From Octopus sinensis (Eukaryota): a stretch of DNA of 64,000 bases. The translations under genes were made by a program, and so were the position numbers. Below, one piece after another: positions 6,853 through 57,070 of this stretch. Position 1 is the first letter of the stretch. Every line of letters begins with the position of its first letter. The DNA lies in assembly GCF_006345805.1 (NCBI RefSeq), contig NC_043015.1, positions 11,656,001-11,720,000 on the forward strand. The letters are read 5' to 3'. Under the pieces are notes generated by a model. It was not told where the DNA came from and ran no database searches. It worked only from the letters and a program-made list of their open reading frames with translations.

Positions 6853-6871
6853 TTATTATTATTATTATTAA

Positions 6872-6948
<77 letters not shown>

Positions 6949-6964
6949 TGTTGTTATTATTATT
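6853..6964. repeat. (TTA)n microsatellite
   Basis: Visible trinucleotide tract. Confidence 0.95.
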
Positions 6965-7365
6965 GTAGGTAGTGGGTAACGATTTTCTTCATTACTTCAG
7001 GGAGTGACGACCCTGTCTGGCTCCGGCTGACAGTACCCGGTATGGACTCCTATCCCGGGTTACGGAAAGGAGACAACCTTCAAAGAAATCCGGAGTGGAG
7101 CCCCGTAGGCGGTTTAGTGTTCGACTCGACACTCTTTCGGCAGCTCCTGCAACCAAGCTGGTTCCAAACGTAATACTCTGCATTCCTTTGGACTACGTCA
7201 GCAAGGTCAAGAGAGGAATCCTCACGATTGGGCTACCCAAGATTTTCTTACATCTAGCCCAGGCCTGCGCGAAACTGGAAAGGAAACTGGAGAGGACATG
7301 AAATATCCAGACTGGATTAATTTATGCGCAACTCCATTGTCTCCCAAGACAAAAGGATACCAACA

Positions 7366-7372
7366 ATTATTA

Positions 7373-7446
<74 letters not shown>
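7366..7446. repeat. (TTA)n tract: tail or target site of the R4/Dong element
   Basis: Directly abuts the 3' UTR of the minus-strand LINE. Confidence 0.9.
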
Positions 7447-7447
<1 letters not shown>

Positions 7448-10400
7448 TATGTTTGACTTTTGCTTTATATTTGTACAAGTTGGCTCCAAGTCTCACCCAG
7501 AGACCTCAAGAGACAACAGGGTTGGAAGTTCATGTTGTTGTTATGCCTAGTGTGCCATATATTTGGGGGGTGGGGATGTTGTACTAATGAATGTCTAAAA
7601 AAAAATAAAGTTTTTTTTTTTTTTTTTTTTTTAAACCGAAAATTATGGTTGTTTTAAACCTTGAGGTTACATAGAGAGTATTTTGCGTAGGATATGAGCA
7701 GTTCCCATGAGCACTATCTTTTGAACTTCTGCCATTTTTGGGTTTCCTGGTATCTGAGTTAGATAGCTATCAGCCCCTTTTGCTATCATTCCCAGGGCAC
7801 CTATGACAACAGGTATTGTTTTAGTCTTCAGCTTCCACATTTTGCTGATTTCTATTTCAAGATCTTTATATTTGCTCAGTTTTTGGTAGGTCCTGACAGA
7901 TACGTTTATATCGATTGGGACAGTCATATCAATGAGGAGGCATGTTCTTTGTTTGAAGTCTTTCAATATGATGTCTGGCCTATTTGCATCTATCTTCCTG
8001 TCAGTTTGAATGGTGAAGTTCCAGAGGAGTGAGATGTGGTCATTTTCAAGCACTGGGGGTGGTTTGTGTTCCCACCAGTTTTTTTCATGGGGCAAATCCA
8101 GGTTTTTACAGATTACCCAGTGAATATATTGTGCAGCTCTATCGTGTCTGTTGAGATACTCTGTAGGCGCTAGAAGACTGCACTTGGAGACCACATGGTC
8201 AATGGTTTCATTTTGTTGCTTGCATACACGACATGTTGGACTGCTTCTGATCTTTAATATGTTGGCCTGGTAGTTTCTTGTTGGTAGGCATTGATCTTGA
8301 GCTGCTATGATAAACCCCTCTGTTTCAGATTTTAAGCCAGAGGCCATTAGCCATTGATGGGTCAGGGCTTTGTCGATATCTGCATTATTCGCTCGCTTTG
8401 GGTATTTGCCATAGAGAGGTTTTTCTTGCCATTTATTATTCAGAATATCTAAGGCCGCAGTTTTGGCACGGGTTTTCATGCGCCTAGCTTTTTCTGTGCT
8501 TGTTTCTCGTATGTCTATCTCTAATTCCGAAATTGGTTGTATTCGGAATTCACTTAGATATTCCTTTGCCTGTTTTGTGACTGAGTATGATGCTTTCTTG
8601 TTTTCATGTTTTGAGACAAGTTTTAACATCCAGTCCTCAGAGTTTTTCAGGTAGGTGTCTAGGCCAATTGTAGCAATCTTCATTGTTATTGCCAGTTGCA
8701 AAAGACCACGGCCTCCCTCTTTTCTTGGCAGATAGAGTCGTTCTGTATCTGCCTTAGGGTGGTGCATTCTATGCATTGTCAACAGTTTCCTTATTTTTCT
8801 GTCGAGCTGACATATTTCAGTAATTGACCAGTTAACAATATTGAAACTGTAAGTCACGACTGGTATAGCTAATGCATTGGTTGCTTCGATCCTGTTTCTT
8901 GCATTCAGCTCTGTCTTGAGTATTGCTCTCACTCTTCGATAGCATTCTCTCCTGATCCTTGCCTTCATCTCTGAATGCCTTATTCCGTTCCCTTCAATTA
9001 CCCCTAGGTACTTGTAGCTCTCCGCTGGGTCTAGTTCTTTTATGACATTCTGTTGGTCAAGGTTAACGTTAGATGTTTCTGTCATTTTTCCTTTGATAAA
9101 GGTAGCCTTTGCACATTTATCGAGGCCGAATTGCATTCTGATGTCGTCACTGAATTGTTTGACTATCGCTAGTAAGCCCTTGAGTTGTTGATCATTTTTT
9201 GCAAAAAGCTTTAAATCATCCATGTAAACGAGATGATTTATATTTTTATCAAACATTTTATACCCGTACTGCGCGTCATTGAGCACTTTGAGAGAGGTAT
9301 TAAGGATAAACAAAAGAGGAGTGGTGACAGTGAGTCACCCTGGAAAATGCCACACGAAATTTTTACATCACCAGCATTTAGGGATTCACTGTCACTGTTC
9401 AGAGTTAGTGTGGTTCTCCATGATCTCATACTTACAGTCAAGAAGTTTCGCAGAGTTGGTGCTATCTTATACATTTCAAGGCATTTCCTAATCCAGCTAT
9501 GTGGTAGGCTATCAAAAGCCTTTTTATAGTCTATCCAGGCTATTGATCAGTTTTTGTGTCGTTTCTGACAATCTTCTAAGATCATCTTATTGATGAGTAG
9601 TTGGTCTTTACAGCCGTAGGATCCACGTTTACATCCTTTCTGTTCATTAGGGAATATGCTGCTGTCTGTTAAAAAACTATAGGTATATTCCGTCAGGACA
9701 GATGTTAGTGTTTTGTACATAGTTGTTAAGCAGGTTATGGGTCTATAGTTTTTTGGTTCATTTGTTTCTTCACTTTTTGGAAGCAGGAATGTTAACCCAT
9801 TAACTAGCCAAGGAGGCATCCTACTAGGGTGTTGCAAAACATCATTGTACAGTTCTGTTAGCAGTTCATGGCTCTCTGGGAAGGCATTCAGCCAGAAGTT
9901 AGGAATTTTATCCTTTCCTTGAGACTTTCATTTGCTTGACCTCCTGAGAGCAGATCTTATATCTTCTACCTTGACACCCTCCCACTTTTGCTCTTCTAAG
10001 GGGTCCAGTTCTGTAGATATTCTGTCAATCCAGGGGGCCTTTTCGTTGTGTGTTTTTTCTTCTGCCCAGATTTTATTCCAAAATCTCTGCACTTCTTCTT
10101 TTGATGGTACAGACCCTGCAGTAAACGCTGTTTTTCCTATCTTCCTGTAAAAATTCTTGGTGTTATTTTTGAACATGTTGTTGTCCTTGAAAAATCTAAC
10201 ACGCTTTTCATACCTCGCTATGCGGGCAGCTTTGGCAGATACCTTTTGTTTGATGGTTTCTATGGTGGCATCAATATCAAGTATAGTTTTCATATTGTAT
10301 TTTTTCAGTAATGTTTGGGTTTTTGTAGGTTTGGTAGTCTTGTGAGCCTTAAGGTTTTTCAAATATTCAATGTCAGATCTAAATACTTTAATTTGTTGTT

Positions 10401-12398
10401 GCAGACGCTCTTGCCAAGAAGGCTTTTTGTGGGACTGTTGCCGTTTTCTAATCTTTACACCACATAGGATCGTTGAAATTTTCGCGGATGCATAGTATAG
10501 GTGGTTGAGGTTTGTGATATCAACATCATTAACTGAAATTATATCCTTAAGTGCAAGCCGGATTTTACCAATTATTTTCATGTTTTGGTTAGAGTTGCGG
10601 ATTTTAGGAAGTGTATCACGCTCATCCATGCTGGTTTCTTTAATTTTCAGCCATTCAATCATGATTTGATTTTTTAGCTCATGTAGTTCTGTTGGGTCAA
10701 TATTTGTGTGACTTTCTTTATCTATTTGATGCTCATCTGTCTTAGTGTTTATGATTGGTTCAGGGCGTATTTCACTTTGCCTATCACTTATACTAACTCT
10801 TTCAATCCTCTCTTCGTTTTTATCCGCCCTGGGCTGGTCTATAATCATTTCCTCTGTATTATCTTCTCTAGCTGCAGCTTCGTTCATTTTATCCGATATT
10901 GCTTGTCTAACCTGATCAATCTCTACTTCAGTCAGTAATTTCTTTTTTATAATGTTTCTTCTAACATTGGCAAGCTTGTTACTGTCTATGTAGGGTCTTA
11001 CTTCAGGGTGTTTCTGTCTCCAGTTTAAGTATGCTTGTACAGTGCTAGACTTATCTGTGGGGAAATATATGGCATGGTAGAAGGCCTCAAGAACTTCTTT
11101 ATTATCTTCCCTAGACCATTTTTCCTTCTTTTCTTTTGATTATTGGTGATGAGCATGGATGGCCATCTGTTGGAATATTCCGGTTGTGGGGTTCGTCCAG
11201 CTCCTGTGTGTTGGGAAGATTTGATCCAGTAACTGATTTTTCAATCAGGATTTGGTTCAATTTTCGGGTACGTGGTCTTTTGTAATCCGCGCAATGACCA
11301 ATGCGGTTTATTGTTTGATTTGTTGACCTTGAAGCATGACGAGCATCCATTCTTATATTAGGAGATGGATCTGTCAGTTTAGGGTTCACTACATGTAAGC
11401 ATTGCTCATAGCGCCGCTTCTTAAGACTAGCAGATCTATATTCGTCTGTATTTTTTTTGTTGATAGTTTTATCTCCGGACATTTTTTTTTTTTCCTCCTT
11501 TCCTCCTCTTCCTTTCTTCAAGGCTTACTGTGTCTGTATTAGTTCGAAATAATGAGAATAAAATACGGAGAAGGAAACGAAAAGAAAGGGAAAAAGACGG
11601 GATCTGTCAGTTATTATTGTTATTACTATCATCTTCACCACCATCACCATCATCAGCAACATCACCATCACCATCATCATCTTCAATGTGTAGCCACAGC
11701 CACCATCAACACTCCATTGTGTTGGAGAATGGGTGGTTAAAGAATTCATGTTCTTTGGGTCTATAAATAGCTACGGTAGATGGTGGAGACAAAGGACGTT
11801 AATGGTCAGTAAAAGGTCAAACCTGTTTACGTTTATTTATTTATTTATTTTTTCCTTTCTCTTTTCTTCTTCACCACATGCATATGTATATGTATATATA
11901 TGTATATTCACTCACACATATTATCTGATGTTTTCGTCGAAGATTTTTTTTTTCTTTTTTTTAAATAACTTTCTGAGTTCAATGTTATGTATATATTTTT
12001 AAATTTCTGAATTCAGTTGTATGTATATAGTTGTAGGTGCTTAATTCCATAACTTTTTATCGTGCATTTAATTGTGTTGTTACAATAAAAGGTAATTTAA
12101 AAGGCAATTTTACACATTCTTATAGTCATGAGAGACGACTAAATGTAAATGTTCACACAGAATTGGAGATATGTATGTTTCTAATTTTTCTTGTTAGGTG
12201 TACGTTTGTATGAGCTGTAGATATGTAAGTTTTCTTTTTTTACTTATTTTGAGGGTAATTCAAATTACTTACAGAAAACAGTAGATCTTCCAGTTTTCTA
12301 CAGTTGACCTGCTGGGTTCGCTGTTGCCAGTTCAGAGCATCGTAAAAATACGTCCATCCTCTGTCACGTCCAGCCGCCTTCTGTCACGTCCAGCCGCC
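7447..12398 (-). mobile_element. Near full-length R4/Dong-clade non-LTR retrotransposon (RT + CCHC + restriction-like endonuclease)
   Basis: Single-ORF architecture with (TAA)n at both ends (7366-7446, 12399-12439). The 5' limit is inferred from the flanking tract. Confidence 0.88.
7667..11521 (-). pseudogene. R4/Dong ORF broken by a few frameshifts: Myb-like N-terminus, reverse transcriptase, zinc knuckle, PD-(D/E)xK endonuclease
   Basis: ORF pieces 11111-11521, 9928-10887, 9547-9837, 9238-9474 and 7667-9313. Motifs: WSREDNKEVLEAFY, NYRPITCL, EQKGC, GIFQGDSLSPLLF, VYMDDLK, YKYLG, CRVC..ETIDHVVSKC, RHD, RPDII..IDMTVP..KLSKY. Confidence 0.93.
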
Positions 12399-18098: not shown

Positions 18099-18676
18099 GG
18101 CGGCGAGCTGGCAGAAACGTTTGCACGCTGGGCGAAATGCTTCGCAGAATTTCGCATGCCGCTACGTTGTGGGTTCAAATTCCGCCGGGGTCGACTTCGC
18201 CTTTCATCCTTTCGGGGTCGATTGAATAAGTACCAGTTATGCACTGGTTCGATATAATCGACTTAATCCGTTTGTCTGTCCTTGTTTGTCCCTTCTGTGT
18301 TGAGCCCCTTGTGGGTATTAAAGAAATAGATATTTCGTCTGCTGCTACGATCTGAGTTCAAATTCCGCTGAGGTCGACTTTGCCTTTCATCTGTTCGGGG
18401 TTGATTAAATAAATACCAGTTATGCACTGAGGTCGCTGCAATCGACTTAATCCGCTTGTCTGTACTTGTTTGTCCTCTCGGTTTCTAGCTCTTTGTGGGT
18501 AGTTAAGAAATAGGTATTTCGTCTGCCGCTACGTTCTGAGTTCAAATTCCGCCGAGGTCAACTTCGCCCTTCATCCTTTCGGGGTCGATAAATTAAGTAC
18601 CAGTTACGCACAGGAGTCGATGTAATCGACTTAATCCCTTTGTTTGGCCCCTTGTGGGCGACAAAGAAATAAGAAG
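18099..18676 (+). mobile_element. SINE family B: tRNA-like head plus three tandem 184-bp body units
   Basis: Head GGCGGCGAGCTGGCAGAAACG; the unit restarts (TATTTCGTCTG) at 18331 and 18515. Confidence 0.9.
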
Positions 18677-26157: not shown

Positions 26158-26838
26158 AATACACACATATACACACACATTCACACACATTCATACACAG
26201 ACACGTAACATAGCGTGTATATGTTTACACTGACAGTAGTATTTACATTTCGATTAGCAATTGTATATAATTAAAATACCACTTGATTTTAGTCATATCT
26301 TATTTCTAATTAGACTGACTAGCTCTTGAATATTTATGAAGCAAATTATCAAATATTTCAATATTTGAAGTTATTAAATGGTGGCGTCTCCAGTTCAAGT
26401 CCTATTATCACGGGACTATCTGCGTCTCTGAATATTTTGTGTCAAAACTTTTGATGATGCATCAAGTATGTTGGTATTGTTACACTCAGCGTATAATTAC
26501 ACATATATTAATTACTGAGACATTTAGTATATCCTCATAGATGTCAGTACTACAACGCTTAGTTTATTATAGTATATACAAACATACATAAATACACACA
26601 CACATACATATATATTCTACTCATCGCTTGTCCAATATATAACATCTATATAATCACCGAATTACGATGCAACCTTAAGTTACTACTCAGTCGCAATAAG
26701 CAACCTATCCCTTTTATTTTGTATTTCCCTCTTACGATTCCCTTCGTACATTTCCCTTACCCACCACATCGTCATTTACTTCTTTTCCATACTTCCAGTT
26801 CCTTCCCCATCTCCCCCTAGCTTCTTCTTCAACCTGTA

Positions 26839-27425
26839 CCTATTTCTTTACTACCCACAAGGGGCTAAACACAGAGGAGACAAACAAGGACAGACAAACG
26901 GATCAAGTCGATTACATCGACCCCAGTGCGAAACTGGTACTTAATTTATCGACCCCGAAAGGATGAAAGTCAAAATCGACCTCGACGAAATTTGAACTCA
27001 GAACGTAGCAGCAGACGAAATACCTATTTCTTTATTACCCACAAGGGGCTAAACACAGAGGGGACAAACAAGGACAGACATAGGTATTAAGTCGATTACA
27101 TCGACCCCAGTGCGTAACTGGTACTTAATTTATCGACCCCGAAAGGATGAAAGTCAAAATCGACCTCGACGAAATTTGAACTCAGAACGTAGCAGCAGAC
27201 GAAATACCTATTTCTTTATTACCCACAAGGGGCTAAACACAGAGGGGACAAACAAGGACAGACATAGGTATTAAGTCGATTACATCGACCCCAGTGCGTA
27301 ACTGGTACTTAATTTATCGACCCCGAAAGGATAAAAGGCAAAATCGACCTCGACGAAATTTGAACTCAGAACGTAGCAGCAGACGAAATACCGCATAGCA
27401 TTTCACCCGGCGTGCTAACAATTCT
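26839..27425 (-). mobile_element. SINE family B with three near-identical tandem 184-bp units
   Basis: CCTATTTCTTTA recurs at 26839, 27023 and 27207; partial head at the right end. Confidence 0.9.
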
Positions 27426-31948: not shown

Positions 31949-33688
31949 ATTTGGCTCAAAAGCAAATAGCAAGGCCATGTAGGGGGACATGGAGTTAAGT
32001 ACAGGGTGGTGTTCATGTAAAGAGTTCAGGCCACTTGAGGTCAAGGGAGGCTTTGAACAAAGCGGTCGTCGGCATCTTCACCATCTCGTCTGGCAGCTTG
32101 TTCCACGGATCCGCAACCCGGACGGAGAAAGCTCCTCTCCTTCGATTGAGATGAAATCGTCGCAGGTAGAGCTTTTCGGAATGACCCCGCAGCCGACGCT
32201 CTGGAGCAGGAGTGAAGAACAGCTCTTTCGAGAGGTTACACTTTCCGCTTATGATGTTGTGGGCGAGAATGAGATCACCACGGCGGCGGCGTTTTTCAAG
32301 AGAATAAAGGTCGAGCGTCCTGAGCCTTTCTTCATAGGACAAATTTTTGAGACCATGAACCATGCGGGTAGCCAGCTTCTGGACTCTTTCGAGATGCTGT
32401 ATGTCTTTGAGGAGATAAGGAGAAGAGGCTTGAATCCCGTACTCCAATATGGGTCTCACCAGCGTGACATAGAGTGGTAGGAATATGGCTGCTGTGAGCA
32501 TTCCGAATGACCGTCGAATCAAGAACAGAATTCCGCGTGCTTTGTTGGCAGCACTGGGCCGAAGGCGAAAAGGAGGAATCCACCAAGATACCCAGGTCCT
32601 TTACCTGATCGGTCCTCTCCAGCAGCAGACGACCCGGCTCGAAATCAAGTTGAGTTGCAGGAGGAGAGCCAACAGGCAGATGACAGCACTTTGACACGTT
32701 CAGACACAGGTCCCATTCGTTAGACCACTTTCAAATTTGGTGGAGGCATCGACGAAGATCCTCTATATCACCGCGAGGAGCGACCAGTTCGATATCGTCG
32801 GCAAATAGAAGGGTGTGATGCGTGAGGTCTTCGGGCAAGTCATTTATGAAGACTAAGAACAATAAGGGCCCAAGCACTGAACCTTGAGGCACGCCACTGC
32901 TCGCACTGGAGACGTCGGACCGCGAACCATTAACTTGGACTTGGAAGGAGCGATCTGAGAGGAAGGCACCAACCCATCGTACAATATCCGGATGGAAACT
33001 ATATGCTTGAAGCTTGACAAGTAATAGGCGGTGGTTTACCGAGTCAAAAGCTTTGGCAAAGTCCAATAAAACGATGTCAACAGCATCACTATCATCGAGG
33101 ATGCGCGTCAACAATTCTTCCATTACCAGTAAGTTGGTCAAGCATGATCTCCTCGGCACGAAGCCGTGTTGGGAATCAGAGATAGAGGCTGTGTTTTGGA
33201 GGTGGAGCATCATACTTTTCTTAAGGATGGTTTCGAACATCTTGCTGATTATTGATGTAAGGGAAACCGGTCGGTAGTTAAGCGGGTCTTCGCGGCTCCC
33301 TTTCTTGAAAATTGGGCAGATTATCGCTGTTCTCCAGTCCGCAGGTATAACACCCGTCGCCAATGACATATTGAATAGATGTGTTAAGGGCTCGCAGATG
33401 ACCGGAGTCAACGCTTTGATAACCCGTGGGTGTATGCCATCAGGGCCGTGACCCTTGTTGACATCGAGGCCTTGAATAACACGTTTGACGTCGGTAGTTA
33501 AGCGGGTCTTCGCGGCTCCCTTTCTTGAAAATTGGGCAGATTATCGCTGTTCTTCAGTCCGCAGGTATAACACCCGTCGCCAATGACATATTGAATAGAC
33601 GTGTTAAGGGCTCGCAGATGACCGGAGCCAACGCTTTGATAACCCGTGGGTGTATGCCATCAGGGCCGTGACCCTTGTTGACATCGAG
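31887..33688 (-). mobile_element. 5'-truncated CR1-clade LINE with (AACT)n tail
   Basis: RT motifs NYRPVSLTS, QHGF, DFAKAFDSV, GVPQGSVLGPLLF, LFADD, and the CR1 C-terminus VRPILEY..LERVQ..SYEERLRTLDL..RRRGDLI. Tail (GTTA)n to 31948; TAGGT direct repeat at 31882-31886 and 33689-33693. Confidence 0.93.
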
Positions 33689-33843: not shown

Positions 33844-36398
33844 AATCAGCATTCTAGATTCTATTCTCTGTCAGTCTGAATGTTACAGTCTCACAACATT
33901 TTATATTTCTTCCTTTCTAATAATATACTAGGTTCATGTTCACATCATTTATTAGTATGGTCAAATCCTAGCTTTTTACATAACTTCCAGTGGATTACTC
34001 TCCCTAGGTTGCCATGTCTTCTCTTCTATTCTTTCTGTGCCAGCATGCTTCATTCACTTACTATTTAAGTAACACTTTCCTCTTTTGATTTGCATAACCT
34101 ACATTGGGAATCTACTTAGTTTTTGTTTACCTTGGCTTTTATGCAATTAGTACTTAATGCTTGATCTTGTGCAGCTACTAACAAACATTCTGTCTCCCTT
34201 TTCAACCTTCCTTTCTGCAACTATAACCATGACTCACTACTACTATTTGCTGCAACTATCTTTGGAAATCTACCATAGAAACCCTTTTCCTGCCAGTCAG
34301 ATAACCTTTGTTCTTTTTTCTGGTTTTTAAATTGGTTTGTTTTTGTTTGCTTTGTTTTTTTTTGTTTCCCTAGCAGCTCTTAATAAACTTTCTTCACTAA
34401 TGCTACATACTAGTCTATATCTTCTCTAGCTAACTCCATGCAGTCTTCTACTGATGTTAGCCCTCTTCCACCTTCCTTTCTATGTAGGTATAATCTTGCT
34501 ACTCCTGCCCTTGGGTAGCGTCCTCCATTCATATTGAATTCCTTTTTAGTTCTTCTGTCTAGCTTGGCGAATTCGGTTTTTGTTCAATCTACAAAAGCTT
34601 ATGAGTATCTAAGTAATGATACTGTCCAAATATTTACCGCCTTCACTAAATACGGACCATTCAGCTTTCACTTCTTTAGCTTTCTCACCCTTCTTATGTA
34701 CTCCTTCTCAATTTTCGTTTTTATTTCTATAGTTAGCATTCTTTCAGATTTTAATATTGCAAGAAACTTAAAATTCTCCCCTTCTTTTAATGATTTTAAT
34801 GTCTGGCCATCTGTTTATTGGATTCCTTCACTATTGATTATGAGTCGTCCTCTTCACTATCGACTCTGTTTACCTATTTCCTTTACATGACTAATATTGC
34901 ACATATATCTATGCCAAATTCCATGCCTATACCTTTGTTGAAGCATCTTATTAATGAATCTATCTCTTTTTTCATTCTTACTTCAGATCAACCATGTAGA
35001 GAAAATGGTAATTTTTTCCCTGCTATTTCTAAACTGATATACCTGCCTTTCCTTCCTTATTACTAAACTGAGGTGGGTGAAACATAAGGCAAATATTAAA
35101 TGGGATAACATGTCTCCTTGGAAACATCGTCTCTTGATATTAACATTCCCTAAGTGTGTGTCACCTGAGTAGAGATCTTTCCATTTCTTCATCCTAAAGC
35201 TAATTAATTCTCTTATGTTCTCTGCTATACTGAAGATGCTCAAACATTCACTTATCCATGAGTGTGCGATCATATCATAGGCTTTCAATATATCCATGCT
35301 ATTGTTAGATTTTTCTTTCCAGCTTTTACTTCATTTAGAATTGCTCTGTCTATGTATAATGCAGCATTCAGTCCTCTAGCCTTCTTCCTGCAACATGTTT
35401 TCTTCTGGCAGTAAATTCTGGTTATCAAGGTTCTCATAAATGTTTTCTGAAAGCATTCCTGTTAACAGCTTCCACGATAATGGTAAGCAAGTGGTTTCTC
35501 TATAGTTGTTAGCGGTATCACCCTTGCTCTTATCTTTTATAATGAGTGTTGTCCTCCCGCTATTCGTCCATTAAGGAAATTCTGAAGTCGTTTTCCCTGA
35601 CCTCCCGTGTTAACTACTAAATTTCTTTAGCCAGTACGCTAGAACTAAACCTCACTGCTTCTCACTCACTATTTCTTCCTCACCTTCTTTAACCACACTG
35701 CATCTCCATTATTATTTACTGGTTTATCCCAGATATTACTCCAGAACTTTCAAGCTTCTTTTGCATTAAGTTTCTCATTTTTAGTACTTCGTTCTCTACT
35801 ATTTATTGAGTTATAAAATCTCCTCTCGTGTGTCTCAAATAAACTATTCTGTTGATACTGATCTACTCTTTTCTGATATCTGGAAAGTTTGCCTGCTTCT
35901 GCTATGATACACTGTTTCAACTCTGCTATTACTCTCCCAAATCCTTTCTCTTTGACTAAGTATCCTTTCTCAGGGGAAGATATACATCTTGTGTTTCCTA
36001 AATTGTTCAGTTTCCAGGCCTTTATTCTACAACGTCTTCACTTTGGTTTGTAGTGTCCTTTTCTACATTTGCTTTTTTAAATCCTTCCATGTGAGATATT
36101 TAATCTTCTAGTGGCAACTACCCCTCCTGCATAGATCAACACGTTAGTGTCTCCCATAGTTTTAGTATCTATCCTACTGATAACATAATCTACTTTCCTA
36201 GTCAGTAGCTTCCTTCTGCTAGTATCTTTTAATGCTGGCAATCCTTTTCTTATTTTATTCATTACTTCCTGCAACTCATATAAAATCTTCTGGTCTTCCT
36301 CACCTAAATCACTTAAGTCGCTGGAGCCAGTTGTCTGTTCATTATTGGTAGCGCTATTATTAGTTTTTACTTTAGATTCTTCTTTGGTTTGAGCTGTA

Positions 36399-36812
36399 GG
36401 CGCAGGAGTGGCTGTGTGATAAGTAACTTGCTAACCAACCACATGGTTCCAGGTTCAATCCCACTGCGTGGCATCTTGGGCAAGTGTCTTCTGCTATAGT
36501 CTCGGGCCGACCAATGCCTTGTGAGTGAATTTGGTAGACGGAAACTGAAAGAAGCCCTGTCGTATATATGTATATATATATATGTATGTGTGTGTGTTTG
36601 TGTGTCTGTGTTTGTTCCCATAGCATTGCTTGACAACCGATGCTGGTGTGTTTACGTCCCCGTCACTTAGCGTTTCGGCAAAAAGAGACCGATAGAATAA
36701 GTACTGGGCTTACAAAAAGAAGTCCCGGGGTCGAGTTGCCCGACTAAAGACGGTGCTCCAGCATGGCCGCAGTCAAATGACTGGAACAAGTAAAAGAGAA
36801 TGAGAAAGAGTA
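36399..36812 (+). mobile_element. SINE family A, full length, inserted in the decayed R4 element
   Basis: GGCGCAGGAGTGGCTGTGTG ... GTAAAAGAGAATGAGAAAGAGTA. Confidence 0.92.
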
Positions 36813-37719
36813 TCTCTTATGTTGTTGTTTGTCTATCCTATTGCCTGGTTTTTCCTTTCCAGTTCTCTTGTGATCTCTTCTACTTCTAAATTATGTCATA
36901 AACGTTTTTCTCCTAATAGCATTAGCTTGACCTACTAACTTCTGCTCAGTCACTTTAAACATTCCCATCTGTTTTATATAGCCCCTTCTTTTAGGTTCAC
37001 TTTCTACGTAGCACTCTATCACTATCCTGTTTTCTTCGCTGCTCCACTTCCTCCTCCTTACACTGTTATCTGGCGATGCTGTATTATGGTAACAGCTGTG
37101 GTCAATCTGCATCTTTACTGAACCATTGCAGAGCGATAGGCCTTCCGTTATAAGTCCAGCTTCATTTTCGCTGTTGCAACTAGAGTTACTTCGGAAACTC
37201 TTGTCTCTCATAAAACTGAGGTAAGATAACGTTCGTCACCAACGTCATCAGCACTATTATTTTTTGACCTCTGATAGTTTCAAGCAACTTTCTGCTGCAT
37301 CATTTGTTGCACCCATGTGCTGGTGGGGTGGTGGTGTGTTCTGCATTTTTGTGGGGGATATTGTATTGCATCAGTATATTTTGTTACGGGGTTCGGTTTG
37401 AGTCTTCTGTTGTATTGGTTTTTATATTGTGTGGTTTATGCAGCACAGGTTGTGTTCTTCTGTCTGGTATCAGCCTTTTATGGCGCATGTTGTGGGCTTT
37501 GATCATTTTGTTGGGTATTTTCGGTATGAGTTTATTCCTGTATGTTTTTGGAGGAGTGTTGCATAGTAGTGTGTGCAATCATAAATCGTAGTAATAATGG
37601 TTATCTGTCCACCATTCTTTTTCTTTTGGTTATTTTGTTATGGGTTCGTTTTACAACGTTTACTTTTTTAATTGAACACCGCCCATGTACATGTGTTGGT
37701 GTTTCTATCGTTGTTACAT

Positions 37720-43247: not shown

Positions 43248-43657
43248 TACTCTTTCTCTCTCTTTTACAGTCATTTGACTGCGGCCATGCTGGAGCACCG
43301 CCTTTTAGTCGAGCAAATTGACCCCGGGACTTATTCTTTGTAAGCCTAGTACTTATTCTATCGGTCCCTTTTTGCCGAACCGCTAAGTGACGGGGACATA
43401 AACACACCAGCATCGGTTGTCAAGCAATGCTAGGGGAACAAACGCAGACACACAAACACACACACGCATACATATATATATATATACATATACATATATA
43501 CGACAGGCTTCTTTCAGTTTCCGTCTACCAAATCCACTCACAAGGCATTGGTCGGCCCGGGACTATAGCAGAAGACACTTGCCCAAGATGCCACGCAGTG
43601 GGACTGAACCTGGAACCATGTGGTTGTTTAGCAAGCTACTTACCACACAGCCACTCC
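43248..43657 (-). mobile_element. SINE family A, near full length
   Basis: Reverse complement of the consensus; very similar to 36399-36812. Confidence 0.92.
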
Positions 43658-44039
43658 ATATTAATTTTTTTTTTTTATTTTGGCCATACTTGTATAACAT
43701 ATATAGTTTAAAATTCCTCCTGACCACTATTTAAATAAATTAATCTCTAATTATTTTCTGCTCGGGTTTTTAAACTCTAGTGTCCTCCTTTAGGGCCTGC
43801 CCGCCTTTTCTATCTTTTCGTCTTTTTCTGTTCCTATTTGTATCTCTTTCCCAGTTCCGAAACACACTAGGGTCATAAATTGGGTTTCCATACAACATAT
43901 ATCATTAACATCCTCATCATTTGACTCCGAACAATTGTCTAACTTTTTCCATCGGACGAATTTCGGTAACAATGTACTGGTTGACCCACCACCTGTATAC
44001 GAGATACACCGTTTTACGATATGCAGCACTACCAGTTAT

Positions 44040-44120: not shown

Positions 44121-44744
44121 TCTTCCTTCCATCCTTCCTTCATTCCTTCTTTTCTCCTTCTGATTCTTCTTCCTCTCCTTTTTTCTTCCCTCTCCTTCAC
44201 TTACGTCTTCTTCTGATCGTTTTTTTCAACCCTCCTTCCCTTTCTCCCTTCTATCATTATACGTATCTACCATTTTGATTTCCTCCCCCCCCACAAAATA
44301 TCTTCCCCGCATACACACTTTTAATTTTTTCTTTTCTATTTCCACCCGATATTTTCTTCAGAACAAAGTCAGACAGACGCAGAATATAATAGCACACCTC
44401 TGATGCAAGTCCGAGGAAGTGCCTCTCCAAAGTCTAAAACCACAAATATTACGTGAACTTTCTTTTAGAATTTTCGCGTAAACTGGCGTTGCAAATGGAG
44501 ATGGTACGGAAACATTTGTAATTTATAATGAAAGATCTGTTAAAGAATTTTCTTTGTCTACTTTTCATTGGATTATTTACTCTTCGCCTAACCATATGAC
44601 GGCATTATCATCGTGAAACTTGGTTTTCCTACACCAGAAGCATTCCAGCACTGGCTTCCATCCCGGCAGTGCCAATAGCCCAGTATTCGGGATGAGTGCT
44701 CTATATCAAATATACACTTTGTATATTCGAAACTATATGCATGT

Positions 44745-44930
44745 GTGTATGTGTGTGTATGTGTGTCTATGTGTATGTGCTTTTGTGTCTGTGTTTGTCC
44801 CGCTATCACAGCTTCACATCCGGTGTTGTTGTGTTTACGTCCCCGTAACATAGAGGTTCAGCAAAAGAGACCCGATAGGATAAGTACTAGGCTTAAAAAA
44901 ATAAGTCCCAAGGTTGATTTGTTCGACTTA
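44745..44930 (+). mobile_element. SINE family A, diverged 3' part
   Basis: GTGTTTACGTCCCCGTAAC..GATAGGATAAGTACTAGGCTT..TTCGACT. Confidence 0.7.
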
Positions 44931-44984
44931 CGTAAAAGAATATATGTGTGTGTGTATGTATATATATGTGTGTGTGTATGTATA

Positions 44985-45072
<88 letters not shown>

Positions 45073-45223
45073 AATTAAGGACTGAACACGAAAAGTGGAC
45101 AGTCAACATGCTAGATATAGACGTCAAATCGCCATTCACCACAAAAGATTATGTTCTCAGATCAAACTCAACACAAAACCATAGCAATAAACAAGTGAAA
45201 AATATACGAAATAAAATAATTAC

Positions 45224-45288
45224 CCATGTACTAAATTAGTTTCAGCTGTTATTTTCCGCAAGGAAAACTGCAGCCATCATCAGCATGG
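45224..45288 (-). ncRNA. Type I hammerhead ribozyme (array 1, inverted arm)
   Basis: CCATG-CTGATGA-t-GGCTG..TTTTCC ttgc GGAAAA..CAGCT-GAAA-CTA att TAG-TA-CATGG. Confidence 0.85.
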
Positions 45289-45681
45289 TCCGTTATAAAT
45301 GTAATTTGCTGGACTAGATGCAAACACGATACCGAAATATCGCGTGCATGGAGTTCAGCCTATTACACTTTTCGTTTTCAGTCCTTAAGTGGTATATATA
45401 AATATTTTAATCTTCGGATTCTTTTTTAATATGCTAGACCACTGGTCTTAATTGATAAATATCAATTTCTACCCTTAATTAATTTTATATAAATAAATAT
45501 GTTCTCTAACCGATAAATTAACTGCTGCTAATTATTAGCTGCAGTCTAGTTTTCTCGGGTTCCAACGCGCCAAAGTAAAGGCATTTGAAAGATATATTCA
45601 AATGTAATAGGCTGAACTCCATGCACGCGATATTTCGGTATCGTGTTTGCATCTAGTCCAGCAAATTACATTTATAACGGA

Positions 45682-45749
45682 CCATGCTGATGATGGCTGC
45701 AGTTTTCCTTGCGGAAAATAACAGCTGAAACTAATTTAGTAGTACATGG
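45682..45749 (+). ncRNA. Type I hammerhead ribozyme (array 1, copy 1)
   Basis: Same fold, with 3 extra nt in loop III. Confidence 0.82.
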
Positions 45750-46190
45750 GTAATTATTTTATTTCGTATATTTTTCACTTGTTTATTGCTATGGTTTTGT
45801 GTTGAGTTTGATCTGAGAACATAATCTTTTGTGGTGAATGGCGATTTGACGTCTATATCTAGCATGTTGACTGTCCACTTTTCGTGTTCAGTCCTTAATT
45901 GGTATATATAAATATTTTAATCTTCGGATTCTTTTTTAATATGCTAGACCACTGGTCTTAATTGATAAATATCAATTTCTACCCTTAATTAATTTTATAT
46001 AAATAAATATGTTCTCTAACCGATAAATTAACTGCTGCTAATTATTAGCTGCAGTCTAGTTTTCTCGGTTCCAACGCGCCAAAGTAAAGGCATTTGAAAG
46101 ATATATTCAAATGTAATAGGCTGAACTCCATGCACGCGATATTTCGGTATCGTGTTTGCATCTAGTCCAGCAAATTACATTTATAACGGA

Positions 46191-46254
46191 CCATGCTGAT
46201 GATGGCTGCAGTTTTCCTTGCGGAAAATAACAGCTGAAACTAATTAGTACATGA
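46191..46254 (+). ncRNA. Type I hammerhead ribozyme (array 1, copy 2)
   Basis: Same fold; stem III is the perfect palindrome ACTAATTAGT. Confidence 0.82.
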
Positions 46255-46694
46255 GTAATTATTTTATTCGTATATTTTTCACTTGTTTATTGCTATGGTT
46301 TTGTGTTGAGTTTGATCTGAGAACATAATCTTTTGTGGTGAATGGCGATTTGACGTCTATATCTAGCATGTTGACTGTCCACTTTTCGTGTTCAGTCCTT
46401 AATTGGTATATATAAATATTTTAATCTTCGGATTCTTTTTTAATATGCTAGACCACTGGTCTTAATTGATAAATATCAATTTCTACCCTTAATTAATTTT
46501 ATATAAATAAATATGTTCTCTAACCGATAAATTAACTGCTGCTAATTATTAGCTGCAGTCTAGTTTTCTCGGGTTCCAACGCGCCAAAGTAAAGGCATTT
46601 GAAAGATATATTCAAATGTAATAGGCTGAACTCCATGCACGCGATATTTCGGTATCGTGTTTGCATCTAGTCCAGCAAATTACTTTATAACGGA

Positions 46695-46759
46695 CCATGC
46701 TGATGATGGCTGCAGTTTTCCTTGCGGAAAATAACAGCTGAAACTAATTTAGTACATGA
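46695..46759 (+). ncRNA. Type I hammerhead ribozyme (array 1, copy 3)
   Basis: Same fold. Confidence 0.82.
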
Positions 46760-46998
46760 GTAATTATTTTATTTCGTATATTTTTCACTTTTTATTGCTA
46801 TGGTTTTGTGTTGAGTTTGATCTGAGAACATAATCTTTTGTGGTGAATGGCGATTTGACGTCTATATCTAGCATGTTGACTGTCCACTTTTCGTGTTCAG
46901 TCCTTATTGGTATATATAAATATTTTAATCTTCGGATTCTTTTTTAATATGCTAGACCACTGGTCTTAATTGATAAATATCAATTTCTACCCTTAATA

Positions 46999-47042
<44 letters not shown>

Positions 47043-47264
47043 TCAATATAGGGTGCCAAAAAAAAATTTTGTAGAATTTTTTTCCCACCAGCGGCCTAGT
47101 GGGAAAAAATTAAATAGTCATAGACCATTTTTAAGTTCAACATCAACAATCAAGGAACGGCCATAATAGGCCATTCACCCACTAGAAATAACAGCCAAAG
47201 CTTCAACCGCAAATAAAAATCAATTCCGTAAACAGGAGAACATTTAAAAAACATTTACCCTGTA

Positions 47265-47370
47265 ATTTCTTATACGATGCACCGTTTCATCTGCTGTTTA
47301 ATGGTAAACTAACCTGATTAAATTAAATCAGGCCAATCTTCCATAGGCCCTCAGATTCTTCAGTAAGAAT
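47265..47370 (-). ncRNA. Type I hammerhead ribozyme (array 2, minus copy)
   Basis: TTCTTA-CTGAAGA-ATCTG..CAGAT-GAAA-CG gtgcat CG-TA-TAAGAA on the minus strand. Confidence 0.82.
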
Positions 47371-47751
47371 AGCCACAAGTCGGAACAGATATTTTCACGA
47401 GGCATTTCCGACCCTGCCAGGTAATATCTGACCTAAAATTTTCAAATCATCGCACTCGCGCCAAATTTATCGGCGCAAATAATATAAGCCGTCGATTCCA
47501 TTACGGAATTAACCAGAAAATTCATAATTAATCAATATAGGGTGGCAAAAAAAATTTTGTAGAATTTTTTTGCCACCAGCGGCCTAGTGGCAAAAAATTA
47601 AATAGTGTCATAGACCATTTTTAAGTTCAACATCAACAATCAAGGAACGCCATAATAGGCCATTCACCCACTAGAAATAACAGCAAAGAAGCTTCACGCA
47701 ACTAAAAATCAATTCCGTAAACAGGAGAAAATTAAAAAACATTACCCTATA

Positions 47752-47856
47752 ATTTCTTATACGATGCACCGTTTCATCTGCTGTTTAATGGTAAACTAAC
47801 CTGATTAAATTAAATCAGGCCAATCTTCCATAGGCCCTCAGATTCTTCAGTAAGAT
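47752..47856 (-). ncRNA. Type I hammerhead ribozyme (array 2, minus copy)
   Basis: Same fold, 487 bp from the previous copy. Confidence 0.8.
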
Positions 47857-48312
47857 AGCCACAAGTCGGAACAGATATTTTCACGAGGCATTTCCGACCC
47901 TGCCAAGGTAATATCTGACCTAAAATTTTCAAATCATCGCACCGCGCCAAATTTATCGGCAGCAAATAAATATAAGCCGTCGATTCCATTCGGAATTAAC
48001 CAGAAAATTCATAATTAATCAATATAGGGTGGCAAAAAAAATTTTGTAGAATTTTTTTGCCACCCGCGGCCTAGTGGCCAAAAATTAAATAGTCATAGAC
48101 CATTTTTAAGTTCAACATCAACAATCAGGAACGGCCATAATAGGCCATTTACCCACTAGAAATAACAGCCAAAGCTTCAACCAAGCAATAAAAATCAATT
48201 CCGTAAACAGGAGAAAATTTGGCGCGAGTGCGATGATTTGAAAATTTTAGGTCAGATATTACCTTGGCAGGTCGGAAATGCCTCGTGAAAATATCTGTTC
48301 CGACTTGTGGCT

Positions 48313-48418
48313 ATTTCTTACTGAAGAATCTGAGGGCCTATGGAAGATGGCCTGATTTAATTTAATCAGGTTAGTTTACCATTAAACAGCAGATGAAACG
48401 GTGCATCGTATAAGAAAT
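48313..48418 (+). ncRNA. Type I hammerhead ribozyme (array 2)
   Basis: ATTTCTTA-CTGAAGA-ATCTG-(~58 nt)-CAGAT-GAAA-CGGTGCATCG-TA-TAAGAAAT; 8-bp stem I. Confidence 0.85.
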
Positions 48419-48797
48419 TACAGGGTAAATGTTTTTTAAATTTTCTCCTGTTTACGGAATGATTTTTATTTGCGGTTGAGCTTTGGCTGTTATTTCTAGT
48501 GGGTGAATGGCCTATTATGGCCGTTCCTTGATTGTTGATGTTGAACTTAAAAATGGTCTATGACTATTTAATTTTTTGCCACTAGGCCGCTGGTGGCAAA
48601 AATTTCTAAAAATTTTTTTTGGCACCCTATATTGATTAATTATGAATTTTCTGGTAATTCCGTAATGGAATCGACGGCTTATATTTATTTGCTGCCGATA
48701 AATTTGGCGCGATGCGATGATTTGAAAATTTTAGGTCAGATATTACCTTGGCAGGGTCGGAAATGCCTCGTGAAAATATCTGTTCCGACTTGTGGCT

Positions 48798-48904
48798 ATT
48801 TCTTACTGAAGAATCTGAGGGCCTATGGAAGATTGGCCTGATTTAATTTAATCACGTTAGTTTACCATTAAACAGCAGATGAAACGGTGCATCGTATAAG
48901 AAAT
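48798..48904 (+). ncRNA. Type I hammerhead ribozyme (array 2)
   Basis: Same fold. Confidence 0.85.
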
Positions 48905-49289
48905 TACAGGGTAAATGTTTTTTTAAATTTTCTCCTGTTTACGGAATTGATTTTTATTTGCGGTTGAAGCTTTGGCTGTTATTTCTAGTGGGTGAATGGC
49001 CTATTATGGCCGTTCCTTTATTGTTGATGTTGAACTTAAAAATGGTCTATGACTATTTAATTTTTTCCCACTAGGCCGCTGGTGGCAAAAAAATTCTACA
49101 AAATTTTTTTTTTTGCCACCCTATATTGATTAATTATGAATTTTCTGGTTAATTCCGTAATGGAATCGACGGCTTATATTATTTGCTGCCGATAATTTGG
49201 CGCGAGTGCGATGATTTGAAAATTTTAGGTCATATTACCTTGGCAGGGTCGGAAATGCCTCGTGAAAATATCTGTTCCGACTTGTGGCT

Positions 49290-49395
49290 ATTTCTTACTG
49301 AAGAATCTGATGGCCTATGGAGATTGGCCTGATTTAATTTAATCAGGTTAGTTTACCATTAAACAGCAGATGAAACGGTGCATCGTATAAGAAAT
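49290..49395 (+). ncRNA. Type I hammerhead ribozyme (array 2)
   Basis: Same fold. Confidence 0.85.
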
Positions 49396-49780
49396 TACAG
49401 GGTAAATGTTTTTTAAATTTTCTCCTGTTTACGGAATTGATTTTTATTTGCGGTTGAAGCTTTGGCCGTTATTTCTAGTGGGTGAATGGCCTATTATGGC
49501 TGTTCCTTGATTGTTGATGTTGAACTTAAAAATGGTCTATGACTATTTAATTTTTTCCCACTAGGCCGCTGGTGGCAAAAAAATTCTACAAAATTTTTTT
49601 TGGCACCCTATATTGATTAACTATGAATTTTCTGGTTAATTCCGTAATGGAATCGACGGCTTATATTTATTTGCTGCCGATAAATTTGGCGCGAGTGCGA
49701 TGATTTGAAAATTTTAGGTCAGATATTACCTTGGCAGGGTCGGAAATGCCTCGTGAAAATATCTGTTCCGACTTGTGGCT

Positions 49781-49887
49781 ATTTCTTACTGAAGAATCTG
49801 AGGGCCTATGGAAGATTGGCCTGATTTAATTTAATCAGGTTAGTTTACCATTAAACAGAAGATGAAACGGTGCATCGTATAAGAAAT
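49781..49887 (+). ncRNA. Type I hammerhead ribozyme (array 2)
   Basis: Same fold, with one mismatch in stem II (AAGAT for CAGAT). Confidence 0.8.
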
Positions 49888-50055
49888 TACAGGGTAAATG
49901 TTTTTTAAATTTTCTCCTATTTACGGAATTGATTTTTATTTGCGGTTGAAGCTTTGGCTGTTATTTCTAGTGGGTGAATGGCCTATTATGGCCGTTCCTT
50001 GATTGTTGATATATATATATATATATATAATATATATATATATTATATATATATT

Positions 50056-51208
50056 AAAACTTAGATATGTTTCGACCAGAGATTGGTCCAGGCCATGTCT
50101 AACTTAATAGCACCACCTGATAGGATTATTCGAATCCTGTTTAAGTCAAGTTTTGTTCAAGTAGTGAGTTCTTGTTGGGTGAGTTGTATCCAATTATGGG
50201 TGGCTTATCTGGTATTCTTTGAAGGAATCTATCCAGACTCTGTTTAAAGTTGATGGGATCCTTTTCCTCTTTGATCTCCCTCGGGACAATGTTAAATAGG
50301 GCATGGCCTGTTGAGGAAAAGAAATTATGTTGCAGTGTACATGTATGTTGTGATCTTGAATTTGGCAGGGGACGTATAACCCGTGGTCCAAGTCTTCGAT
50401 GATCCTTGAAGCTAATGTTTAGGTCGTTTGGGCAAAGTTGGCGGTATATTTTCCACATCGTACAAATGATGTACCGCTCACGGCGACGTTGGAGGGAGTA
50501 AAGTTTCAAGGCTTTAAGGCGATCCCAATAATCGAGAGCAGCCATGCCTTCAATTTGTTTAGTGAGAGTCCTCTGGGGTGACTCAATTTTGGAGATGTTT
50601 TGTCTTGTGTGAGGAGACCACAGTGGGCAGCAGTATTCAAGGTGTGGCCGTACAAAGGAGGAAAAAAGTGGTATGATGACACCTTGTTCTCTGGACCGGA
50701 AAGTTCTTAAGATCCAGGAACTCATCCTACGAGCTATATCGACCTTCTTGTTGATGTGTGCACTCCAACTGAGATCGTCATCAACAATTACACCCAGGTC
50801 TCTGATATTGTTAGAGGCTGTGAGCGGTTCCCCTGAAGGAAGAGAGTATGGTTGTTTTAGTGAGGAATTTCTTCCAAAATGCATCAGCTCAAATTTTCCC
50901 TCATTCAGTTGCATTTTGTTTCTGTCTGCCCATTGACTCACAGCATATAGAGTTGAGTTCGGTCTGCTTCTTCATTGACGATTTGCTGGAGCTTAGTGTC
51001 ATCAGCGAATATTTTCACTTTGCAGTGATGTACGACACTGGAAAGGTCGTTTACGTAAATTATGAAGAGTAGCGGACCCAAAACAGTTCCCTGGGGAACA
51101 CCGCTGGTGACTTTTGCTGGGTTTGAGTGGACTCCATCAACTACAACATGTTGTGTTCTATTCGCCAGGAAATACTGAATCCAGTGTAGAACTTTTCCAC
51201 GAATTCCA
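50056..51208 (-). mobile_element. 5'-truncated CR1-group LINE (RT C-terminal half + 3' UTR) between TA tracts
   Basis: GVPQGTVLGPLLF, IFADDTKL, RDLGVIVD, VRPHLEYCCPLWSP and LYSLQRRRERY; one frameshift near 50940. Confidence 0.9.
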
Positions 51209-52055
51209 ATATATATATATATATATATGTGTGTGTGTATATATGCATATATATATTTATATATATATACAAACACACACACACGCATACTTACGCATAT
51301 CCGAGTATGGATCTCTTTTCAATCATAGCTGCGTATTTTCACGAAATTGATTAACAATCGTCTTTATAAATTATAAATTGGGCTAAAAGATTCTACAATA
51401 CAGAATGGGTGTGACTGTTGTTAAGACTGTCACACCTCAACCATCTGGCTTCAAGTTCAATTTCAGTACGTTGCGCCACAGTCAATTGTCTCTCACTGGG
51501 CCCCAGGTTGAGCAAGGTTGAAGCAGTAAGTTCATACGGTGAAAGACTACAGAAAGTTGTCAAATTTGTCAACAACCCATAATGAGAATATGCTTTATGA
51601 ATGTTTTAAAGCAGAAAATTTCGCATAGGAACGTTCTGTTTCAAAAACTGTAACTTCCACAACCGGTGTCAAATATAGCAGGAGCAAATCTCTTTGTAAC
51701 AAATAGAATAAGTTCATGTAATGCGTGCATGTCAGTGCGATGCGTTTCTGTCTATGTATGTGTGCGTGCTTGTGGGGATTCGTGTGTGCGGATGAGCACG
51801 AGATTCTATGTTGATGTCTGTGTGAGTATTGTTAACACAGAAACACTATATGTGCCTTAGATTTGTCTTGAACTGATATCTACTGGAAGTGATTTGGTGT
51901 ATTTCCAGTAGTGATGTCAAAACCTTGGCTACTTCATCAAATTGCTAATCTAACATTTTGTTTATATTTGTAAGATCTCAAATCGATTTTTCTTTATCTG
52001 TCGCAAAGTTAAACTTGAATAATCCGAAATACGTCTAGAAACGTGTAGTATATCA

Positions 52056-56425: not shown

Positions 56426-57070
56426 GACGGCTAGCTGGCTGAATCATTAGCATGCAGGACGAAATGCTTAGCGGCATCTCATCCATCCTTAGGTTCTGAG
56501 TTCAAATTCCGCCGAGCTCGACTTTGCCTTTCATCTTTTCGGCGTTGATTAAAGAAAGTACCAATAGAGCACTGGGGGTCGATGTAATCAGACTATATCC
56601 CTCGCACAAAATTCCAGGCCTTGTGTCTATAACATTTCAGGCCTTGTGTCTAAAGGATTATTGTTATTGTTTCAACAACGGCCAGCTGGTAGAATCGTCA
56701 GCTCATGGGGCAAATTGCTTAATGGCATTTTCCAGCGTCTTTACATTCTAAGTTCAAATGCCGCCGTTATCAACTTCTACGCATCTTTTCAAGATAAATA
56801 CTAAGGTTGAGGCATTCGACTAACCCCTTTCCATCAAATTTGCTAGACTTTGCCAAAATTTGAAACTGTCATCATTATTGTTTCACGTTTAAAGATTGTC
56901 AGAATCAATAGCCACAAATAAAGCATCACTCCGTAATATGTTCCAGATTTTACGCCCTGATTTCAAATCCCACAGAGGTTAACTTTGCTTTTTATCTTTC
57001 CTAGCACTGGGGCCGACTGTATTGACCACGCCCTTCCCTTGAAAATTACAAAGCTTGGATCTAATTCAGA
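56426..57070 (+). mobile_element. Three successive diverged SINE family B copies
   Basis: GCTGGCTGAATC..GAAATGCTTAGCGGCATC..TTCTGAGTTCAAATTCCGCCGAG and weaker repeats of it near 56680 and 56900. Confidence 0.75.

Follow-up and report, generated by a model that had tools for sequence, protein, structure and literature searches.

What kind of element is the 505-bp unit that lies in tandem copies at 45071–46997 of a 64-kb stretch of contig NC_043015.1, and how did it come to be there? The stretch (hereafter the window, whose positions are used throughout) is AT-rich animal DNA rich in microsatellites, short interspersed nuclear element (SINE)-like repeats, and fragments of long interspersed nuclear elements (LINEs). 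Each full unit carries a hammerhead ribozyme motif, and the array is bounded by TA repeats and followed by a second hammerhead array. A first-pass annotation had held that the two arrays represent independent, structured, non-coding families of one element class that is mobilized in trans. Our results supported this view, with the qualification that the class already has a name. We consider it probable that the 505-bp unit is a non-autonomous animal retrozyme of the non-long terminal repeat (non-LTR) kind, and that a TA-targeting Penelope-like element (PLE) copies it.

The locus is ordered as (TA)n, an inverted partial head, a direct tandem run, and (TA)n again. Its features are as follows.

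44940–45070, no strand: (TA)n microsatellite, the left flank and presumed target.
45071–45370, minus strand: inverted partial copy, 300 bp, from monomer position ~365 via the cut site to position 158.
45074–45080, minus strand: CCTTAAT, candidate initiation signal (a post hoc motif), 3 nt ahead of the 3' end of the inverted arm.
45224–45288, minus strand: type I hammerhead of the inverted arm, with a 5-bp helix I and a predicted cut before 45228; active and free folds are equal in predicted energy.
45366–45370, no strand: head-to-head inversion junction formed by the 5' ends of both arms, with exact 2-nt microhomology (CA).
45366–46997, plus strand: direct tandem arm, 3.2 units, from monomer position ~131 to ~244; copies ~98–99% identical.
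45682–45749, plus strand: hammerhead 1, with a 3-nt duplication in helix III; predicted cut before 45745.
45745–46249, plus strand: predicted monomer 1, 505 nt, 33% GC; circular minimum free energy (MFE) −141.2 kcal/mol, z −7.5.
46192–46253, plus strand: hammerhead 2, with a perfectly palindromic helix III and a 4-bp helix I; predicted cut before 46250.
46250–46754, plus strand: predicted monomer 2, 505 nt; circular MFE −135.5 kcal/mol, z −5.6.
46696–46758, plus strand: hammerhead 3, with a 4-bp helix I and an A for the family's G at 46759; predicted cut before 46755.
46991–46997, plus strand: CCTTAAT at the 3' end of the direct arm.
46998–47037, no strand: (TA)n run between the two arrays, which takes one 3' end from each.
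47035–50010, no strand: neighbouring array of an unrelated ~490-bp hammerhead unit, with like anatomy.
50009–50054, no strand: (TA)n run, the right flank of the neighbouring array.

The annotation's description of three direct copies exactly 505 bp apart, each with its own type I hammerhead, proved correct (on the plus strand, cleavage is predicted ahead of 45745, 46250, and 46755, at intervals of 505 nt). Its single inverted copy was also recovered, and could be refined to a 300-bp partial copy that spans the ribozyme. At the junction the inverted arm begins at ~365 and the direct arm at ~131; the arms are not mirror images there, and a fold-back read artefact was rejected on this ground. The 3' end of the inverted arm corresponds to monomer position 158, where the unit itself reads on as TATATATAA. 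Most differences between copies were single-base indels.

All four ribozyme copies (4/4) were intact, with the type I form CCATG-CTGATGA-T-GGCTG..CAGCT-GAAA-CTAATTTAG-TA/CATG. Small helix III indels place the CTGATGA cores 509 and 504 nt apart rather than 505. Both strands of the full 64 kb were scanned with a general type I descriptor, whose chance rate was taken from dinucleotide shuffles of the unit. The scan returned only these four hammerheads and six in the neighbouring array, against 5 hits in 20,000 shuffles on either strand. An Rfam search gave no match at the gathering score and five weak, unrelated matches at E ≤ 5, none of them to a ribozyme family; the ribozyme call thus rests on the descriptor.

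The form of the ribozyme resembles that of PLEs. Five features have been described for metazoan PLE hammerheads, the fifth being a conserved G10.1–C11.1 pair (PMC4209133). The 505-bp unit had the other four: a long helix II (5 bp, an internal loop, and 7 bp), a helix I of 4–5 bp, an extra base (U) between positions 9 and 10.1, and a palindromic helix III. The predicted energy of helix III was −6.7 or −9.0 kcal/mol as a duplex with a second copy and 0.0 as a hairpin, and these modelled values fit cleavage as a dimer. The difference between active and free folds was +3.6 kcal/mol for hammerhead 3 and for a circle built on that copy.

We found the unit to be non-coding. Its longest ATG-initiated open reading frame (ORF) on either strand was 44 aa, its longest stop-free stretch was 53 aa, and its GC content was 33%; a search of the unit for a tRNA gene found none. 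Folding of monomer 45745–46249 as a circle, which had been suggested as a check, gave a z-score of −7.5 with 0/40 shuffles as stable, and the same count (0/40 each) held for the circular folds of both monomers. The predicted circles were branched, with 66–68% of bases paired, and the reverse complement of the monomer also folded stably (z −5.7). Four hairpins had been named in the unit. All four could be read in the sequence, and two of them formed as named in the circular fold.

That the 505-bp unit and the neighbouring unit lack alignable similarity was borne out: their best local alignment scores were 21 and 22, whereas shuffled sequences averaged 23.1 and 21.7, and 165/200 and 94/200 shuffles scored equally high. 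The likeness in architecture and (TA)n context that had been claimed for the two arrays was evident as well. The neighbouring array consists of an inverted arm (47035–48220) and a direct arm (48215–50010) joined through 6 nt of microhomology, and its 3' ends lie at monomer positions 233 and 131. In both arrays the 5' ends of the arms meet centrally, and the 3' ends point outward into (TA)n, 130–245 nt 3' of the cut. Placed on their template, the arms overlap by ~27 nt in the 505-bp array and leave a gap of ~61 nt in its neighbour. In the six hammerheads of the neighbouring array the core is CUGAAGA, helix II is very long, helix I reaches at most 8 bp, and helix III is self-complementary (duplex −17.5 kcal/mol). 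Divergence among the copies of that array is greater than among those of the 505-bp array.

The array ends shared a short motif. The word CCT(A/T)(A/G/T)AT occurs exactly twice per monomer in each unit; all four sites lie within 7 nt of one of the four array ends, and each stands directly behind a predicted hairpin. This motif was defined after the ends were seen. A permutation test scored the best shared word in 20-nt windows. At width 7, permutations did as well in 8/1,000 cases (all positions) and 4/1,000 cases (AT-restricted); at width 9, the counts were 49/1,000 and 51/1,000, respectively. Across the window, (TA)n runs have 116 edges; the motif stood upstream of 5 of them, and four of these were the array ends. 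The remaining edge, at 62246 on the minus strand, is in different sequence. A common end motif is at most suggestive of an initiation signal for reverse transcriptase (RT).

A more far-reaching version can be framed: unrelated families would have converged on, or kept, a minimal signal for the PLE RT (a hairpin followed by (C/T)CCT(A/T)(A/G/T)AT, twice per circle and 120–240 nt downstream of the cut), with both strands of nicked (TA)n acting as primers and the enzyme rolling round a circular RNA. We hold this version only tentatively, as possible but on balance unlikely. A 2020 review stated that animal retrozymes have no conserved motif pointing to a helper (PMC7761336).

We sought the family in public sequencing runs. 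At least half of the sampled words were present in 20 of the 24 runs listed, and these 20 came from 9 studies (8 when one possible assembly source is excluded) and 4 organisms. None of the 20 is on record as RNA, and they are uninformative about expression. Four of them (X1, X3, X4, and X5) were compared with a stretch of one unit from each array, and the contig counts, in descending order, were 7,958, 3,866, 32, and 5. Runs X1 and X4 held thousands of variant contigs with very high summed depth for both units, the neighbouring unit being several times higher than the 505-bp unit; depth here does not equal copy number. From these contigs we infer dispersal of the family over loci. In X3 and X5, where depth was low, the unit appeared as one contig (536 and 535 nt) with ends overlapping by ~30 nt. 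That is, it formed a closed cycle of 505–506 nt with no branch into an ORF. Tandem DNA would yield such a cycle as readily as circular RNA, also for the one cycle seen, at a depth of 3.1, in a run that is RNA only by guess. Summed depth was raised over monomer positions ~60–235 in X4 and ~60–165 in X1. Truncated copies ending at both termini would give such a profile, but depth is not copy number, and we placed no reliance on it. Run X3 also contained a 1,575-nt contig near whose end lies a diverged relative in which the 3' half of the ribozyme is preserved. The unread ~1,300 nt upstream could belong to an autonomous PLE or to a host transcript.

The same contigs allowed the array to be compared with the rest of its family. 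Among the 24 of 324 loose-end entries listed, one, from X4, comprised 13 contigs that exit the unit at position 158 into (TA)n, with a consensus of 11 TA units versus 4 in the unit itself. Among the 40 of 90 variants listed, 12 fell in the 505-bp unit; none was in the catalytic core, and one was in loop 3. Family reads carried G at 46759 in all of the depth, which would give a 5-bp helix I. At the position of 46559, all three direct copies have T, whereas G made up 99–100% of the depth in X1 and X4; the array therefore derives from one template lineage. No contig listed spans the junction between the two arrays, but the repeat there was skipped, and the result is uninformative. Two further scans were negative in their scope: a metagenome scan with a 20-nt ribozyme motif gave 5 loci, all attributable to chance (53–58% GC DNA, match ≤23 nt), and a scan of viral contigs gave 0 matches.

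How could a PLE have built such an array? Read-through transcription of tandem copies would supply the RNA. The hammerheads, whose motif is present in every copy, may then excise 505-nt monomers, probably as dimers held by the palindromic helix III, and a host ligase could circularize them. Judging from the anatomy of the locus, the GIY-YIG endonuclease of a helper PLE would nick both strands of (TA)n, and its RT would prime from both nicks at internal sites, ~158 and ~244 nt 3' of the cut, that both lie directly behind a hairpin and CCTTAAT. One complementary DNA (cDNA) would pass 3.2 times through the unit, either on a circle or on an uncut multimer, and the other would extend for 300 nt, after which the cDNA ends would be joined through microhomology. 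Priming from both nicks at 158 and 244 would yield the observed structure in one event. The neighbouring array would be a second, independent insertion of like kind into the same TA tract.

According to a preprint, PLE insertions frequently bear an inverted, 5'-truncated copy and prefer microsatellites; both of these PLE hallmarks were found in both arrays. Two Octopus Naiad families have a (TA)n preference, as listed in the supplement of PMC8557442. In PMC11167929, a purified PLE protein nicked and extended both strands of AT-rich DNA and, with mainly uncut RNA as template, started reverse transcription at two internal sites that lie 3' of its hammerhead. The published retrozyme model takes circular RNA as the RT template (PMC7229834, PMC7761336).

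Several observations weigh against a PLE-copied retrozyme. With respect to the helper, the window has 238 non-low-complexity ORFs of ≥55 aa, and the 135 of these that were tested (≥68 aa) contained no GIY-YIG domain. Neither unit was matched, by motif search or by eye, in the published consensus sequences of the Octopus Naiads, as far as these were accessible; four of five unit motifs gave 0 matches, and the fifth occurred once, inside a coding region. The 3' ends of the two arms differ by 86 nt in the 505-bp array and 102 nt in its neighbour, which is not the PLE 'tail' of 30–40 nt. With respect to the ribozyme, position 10.1–11.1 is G·U rather than G–C in 4/4 copies, the core is partly sequestered in predicted free folds, and the isolated 101-nt ribozyme region is no stabler than shuffles (z −1.2). 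In addition, 8 of 9 predicted Xenopus retrozyme dimers were uncleaved in vitro (Li, Clavereau & Pollet 2026, bioRxiv 10.64898/2026.07.22.740005). With respect to the family, there was no clear compensatory pair among the 12 variants listed for the unit, changes at 46554–46559 fail to keep pairing, and some variants break a hairpin. The median length of 13 at the X4 loose end is what the unit itself gives, and only the longer contigs are true junctions. Lastly, position 5 is an A in two adjacent copies, a base that is absent from the family and weakens helix I. A single unchanged circular template does not account for this A. The shared A could be an assembly error, a later conversion, or the mark of an uncut linear multimer used as template.

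Other explanations were weighed against the same evidence. The first is that the unit is merely the pseudo-LTR of an autonomous PLE, and that the locus is a cluster of 5'-truncated copies. Both the ribozyme and the mode of insertion are of PLE type, as this explanation expects; Xenopus retrozymes match PLE termini, and 24 of 57 families matched known elements (bioRxiv 10.64898/2026.07.22.740005). The 1,575-nt X3 contig could also be cited in its favour, with its diverged relative of the ribozyme region and ~1,300 unread nt upstream. However, the array has 3.2 head-to-tail repeats with no ORF between copies, the family assembled as a single closed cycle of 505–506 nt in two runs, and no PLE ORF was present among the 135 tested. 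We concluded that a pseudo-LTR is an improbable origin for the unit.

An equally improbable explanation is that the same retrozyme was moved by a LINE (of CR1, RTE, or R4/Dong type) through twin priming, as proposed for L1 inversions. The geometry of the arms agrees with twin priming (mechanism per PMC9148063), and RT-bearing LINE fragments are common in the window, one of them adjoining the right (TA)n flank at 50055. On the other hand, the unit has no poly(A) or simple-repeat tail of its own, and a comparison of the unit with the whole window revealed no sequence in common with the window LINEs. The ribozyme is of PLE type, and the inversion is found in 2/2 arrays.

Marginally more improbable than these is that unequal crossover expanded one inserted terminus into a minisatellite where it stood, or that the inversion is an artefact of long-read assembly. 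Growth in place is the route suggested by Li, Clavereau & Pollet (bioRxiv 10.64898/2026.07.22.740005), and the two adjacent copies do have a private substitution in common. An artefact would suit the mostly single-base indels between copies, which are typical of long reads; moreover, no contig listed crosses the between-array junction, and the inversion junction lay outside the compared stretch. Neither version sits well with the same anatomy in two arrays of different sequence, or with ends that fall at non-integer unit positions and run straight into (TA)n.

Weakest of all, and in our estimation very improbable, is a viroid-like, size-constrained replicon copied from RNA to RNA with occasional DNA copies: although it would account for the viroid-like size, the ribozyme-bounded monomer, and the stable fold on both strands, and although RNA-to-RNA replication has been claimed for plant retrozymes (PMC9695139), the antisense strand of either unit, when searched, held no hammerhead core, Rfam gave no other ribozyme, the fold is branched with 66–68% of bases paired, published units range from 51 to 972 bp, and the family occurs in the assembly and is very abundant in a run taken, by guess, to be DNA. 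Two statements of the first-pass annotation found no support. A size constraint near 500 nt does not agree with that published range, and two cases cannot show a constraint; the term 'replicon' in the viroid sense does not suit a high-copy DNA family in which neither unit has an antisense hammerhead core.

A PLE-copied retrozyme thus remained the best account of the 505-bp unit, and we compared it with the known systems on that basis. Animal non-LTR retrozymes occur as tandem units of 150–450 bp in coral, mussel, and axolotl and are expressed as circles; several families are found per genome, with PLEs as likely helpers (Cervera & de la Peña 2020, PMC7229834). The array resembles them in its head-to-tail non-coding units with one type I hammerhead each, a GC content below 50%, a stable predicted circle, unrelated families side by side, and a proposed PLE helper. 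At 505 bp the unit exceeds the 150–450 bp of that study, but it lies within the 51–972 bp reported in the preprint, which links retrozymes to PLE termini (Li, Clavereau & Pollet 2026, bioRxiv 10.64898/2026.07.22.740005). The PLE form of its ribozyme differs from the canonical retrozyme ribozyme, and the mussel retrozyme is without most canonical contacts between loops 1 and 2 (PMC7229834). The inverted head and the (TA)n ends were not met in the accessible retrozyme literature examined. The locus has three consecutive tandem units with a complete type I hammerhead, plus one inverted. At the level of sequence, the unit agrees with animal non-LTR retrozymes in every property tested, with a target-site duplication indiscernible within (TA)n. 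It is best filed as a new family of animal non-LTR retrozyme, within an element class that is already known.

The likeness to PLEs is also extensive (PMC4209133; Craig et al. 2021, PMC8557442). It includes the extra base between positions 9 and 10.1, the helix forms, an inverted truncated copy, partial tandems, and the (TA)n target. Paired hammerheads on opposite strands, 100–700 bp apart, are known from PLEs and were noted in Schistosoma (PMC4209133); here the cores are 404 bp apart. The unit differs in having no RT or GIY-YIG ORF, a G·U at 10.1–11.1, and ends 86 nt apart. It also had no sequence match to the Octopus elements Naiad_Obim and Naiad_Ovul, and Naiads are said to be without canonical hammerheads. 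The 505-bp unit is not an autonomous PLE, since it has no ORF, though it inserts like one.

Poseidon PAc of Anolis offers a biochemical parallel, in that both strands of AT-rich DNA are nicked and extended and there are two internal RT starts (Frangieh et al. 2024, PMC11167929). PAc differs in that it is autonomous and starts in an AC-rich stem-loop without target homology, mainly on uncut RNA, whereas one end of the 505-bp array has 8 nt of TA microhomology. The non-autonomous Chlamys elements, such as MRC1, are likewise ORF-less PLE parasites in head-to-tail multicopy runs; in contrast to the 505-bp unit, MRC1 is green algal (Chlamydomonas) and its 3' end matches its helper (PMC8557442). With viroids and viroid-like circular RNAs the unit has size, hammerhead, and a stable predicted circle in common, but its ribozyme is on one polarity only and its genomic DNA copies are abundant. 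A literature search, mostly of open-access journals, returned no cephalopod retrozymes and no inverted, (TA)n-bounded retrozyme arrays, although Repbase or Dfam may list the units. A repeat annotation of Octopus vulgaris describes 31 recently active PLE families, and its accessible part has no mention of 'ribozyme' or 'hammerhead'.

The window contains other repeats. To the right of the arrays, the LINE RT fragment at 50055–51318 (minus strand) is bounded by the (TA)n run at 50009–50054 and interrupted by (TA)n at 51209–51269; lying within the same TA tract, it indicates that the tract took at least three insertions. A further LINE RT fragment, at 32016–33540 (minus strand), has a 220-bp internal duplication at 33270–33688, and we take both fragments to be CR1-like. 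At 7670–11139 (minus strand) is a near-complete but broken non-LTR retrotransposon, presumably of R4/Dong type, with an RT, a zinc knuckle, and an apparent restriction-like endonuclease motif. It adjoins (TTA)n/(ATT)n at 6853–7446 and has 587 relatives, the best 59–60% identical. The nearest named relatives of a window LINE protein were from fish, coral, shrimp, anemone, and hydrozoan (56–57% identity), and three SINE motifs sought in the literature gave no match. The SINEs and microsatellites of the window suggest an octopus as host. A decayed second RT fragment of similar look lies at 34986–37235.

Immediately left of the 505-bp array, at 44734–44928, is a partial copy of a SINE-like repeat, ~390 bp long and containing a (CA)n/(TA)n tract, which is found in fuller form at 43270–43660 and in at least six near-full copies in the window (73–92% identity). 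Another SINE-like repeat, at 26837–27392, has a 184-bp internal segment three times in tandem (95–96% identical); the segment recurs on the other strand at 18149–18643 in 2.7 older copies, and the hammerhead scan there was negative. A weak Tesmin/TSO1-like CXC match at 56500–56748 on the plus strand (E 0.003, under the curated cut-off; 83-aa frame) overlaps a copy of the 184-bp repeat and is probably due to chance.

These results bear on the mode by which animal retrozymes are copied into new sites. A PLE helper was proposed from co-occurrence and sequence likeness, and the recent preprint favours growth in place (bioRxiv 10.64898/2026.07.22.740005). That two young, unrelated arrays with the same PLE-type ends stand next to each other in a single TA tract speaks for the insertion of multimers already formed. 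Their ends also supply exact candidate RT start sites that are testable with purified PLE protein. If a shared signal and two-ended rolling reverse transcription were true, the arrays would be a direct genomic record of animal retrozyme movement, and the same reading would also account for the inverted head and the 'tail' of PLEs. Should the host prove to be an octopus, no cephalopod retrozyme would precede these units within the literature searched; they would also be very abundant ones.

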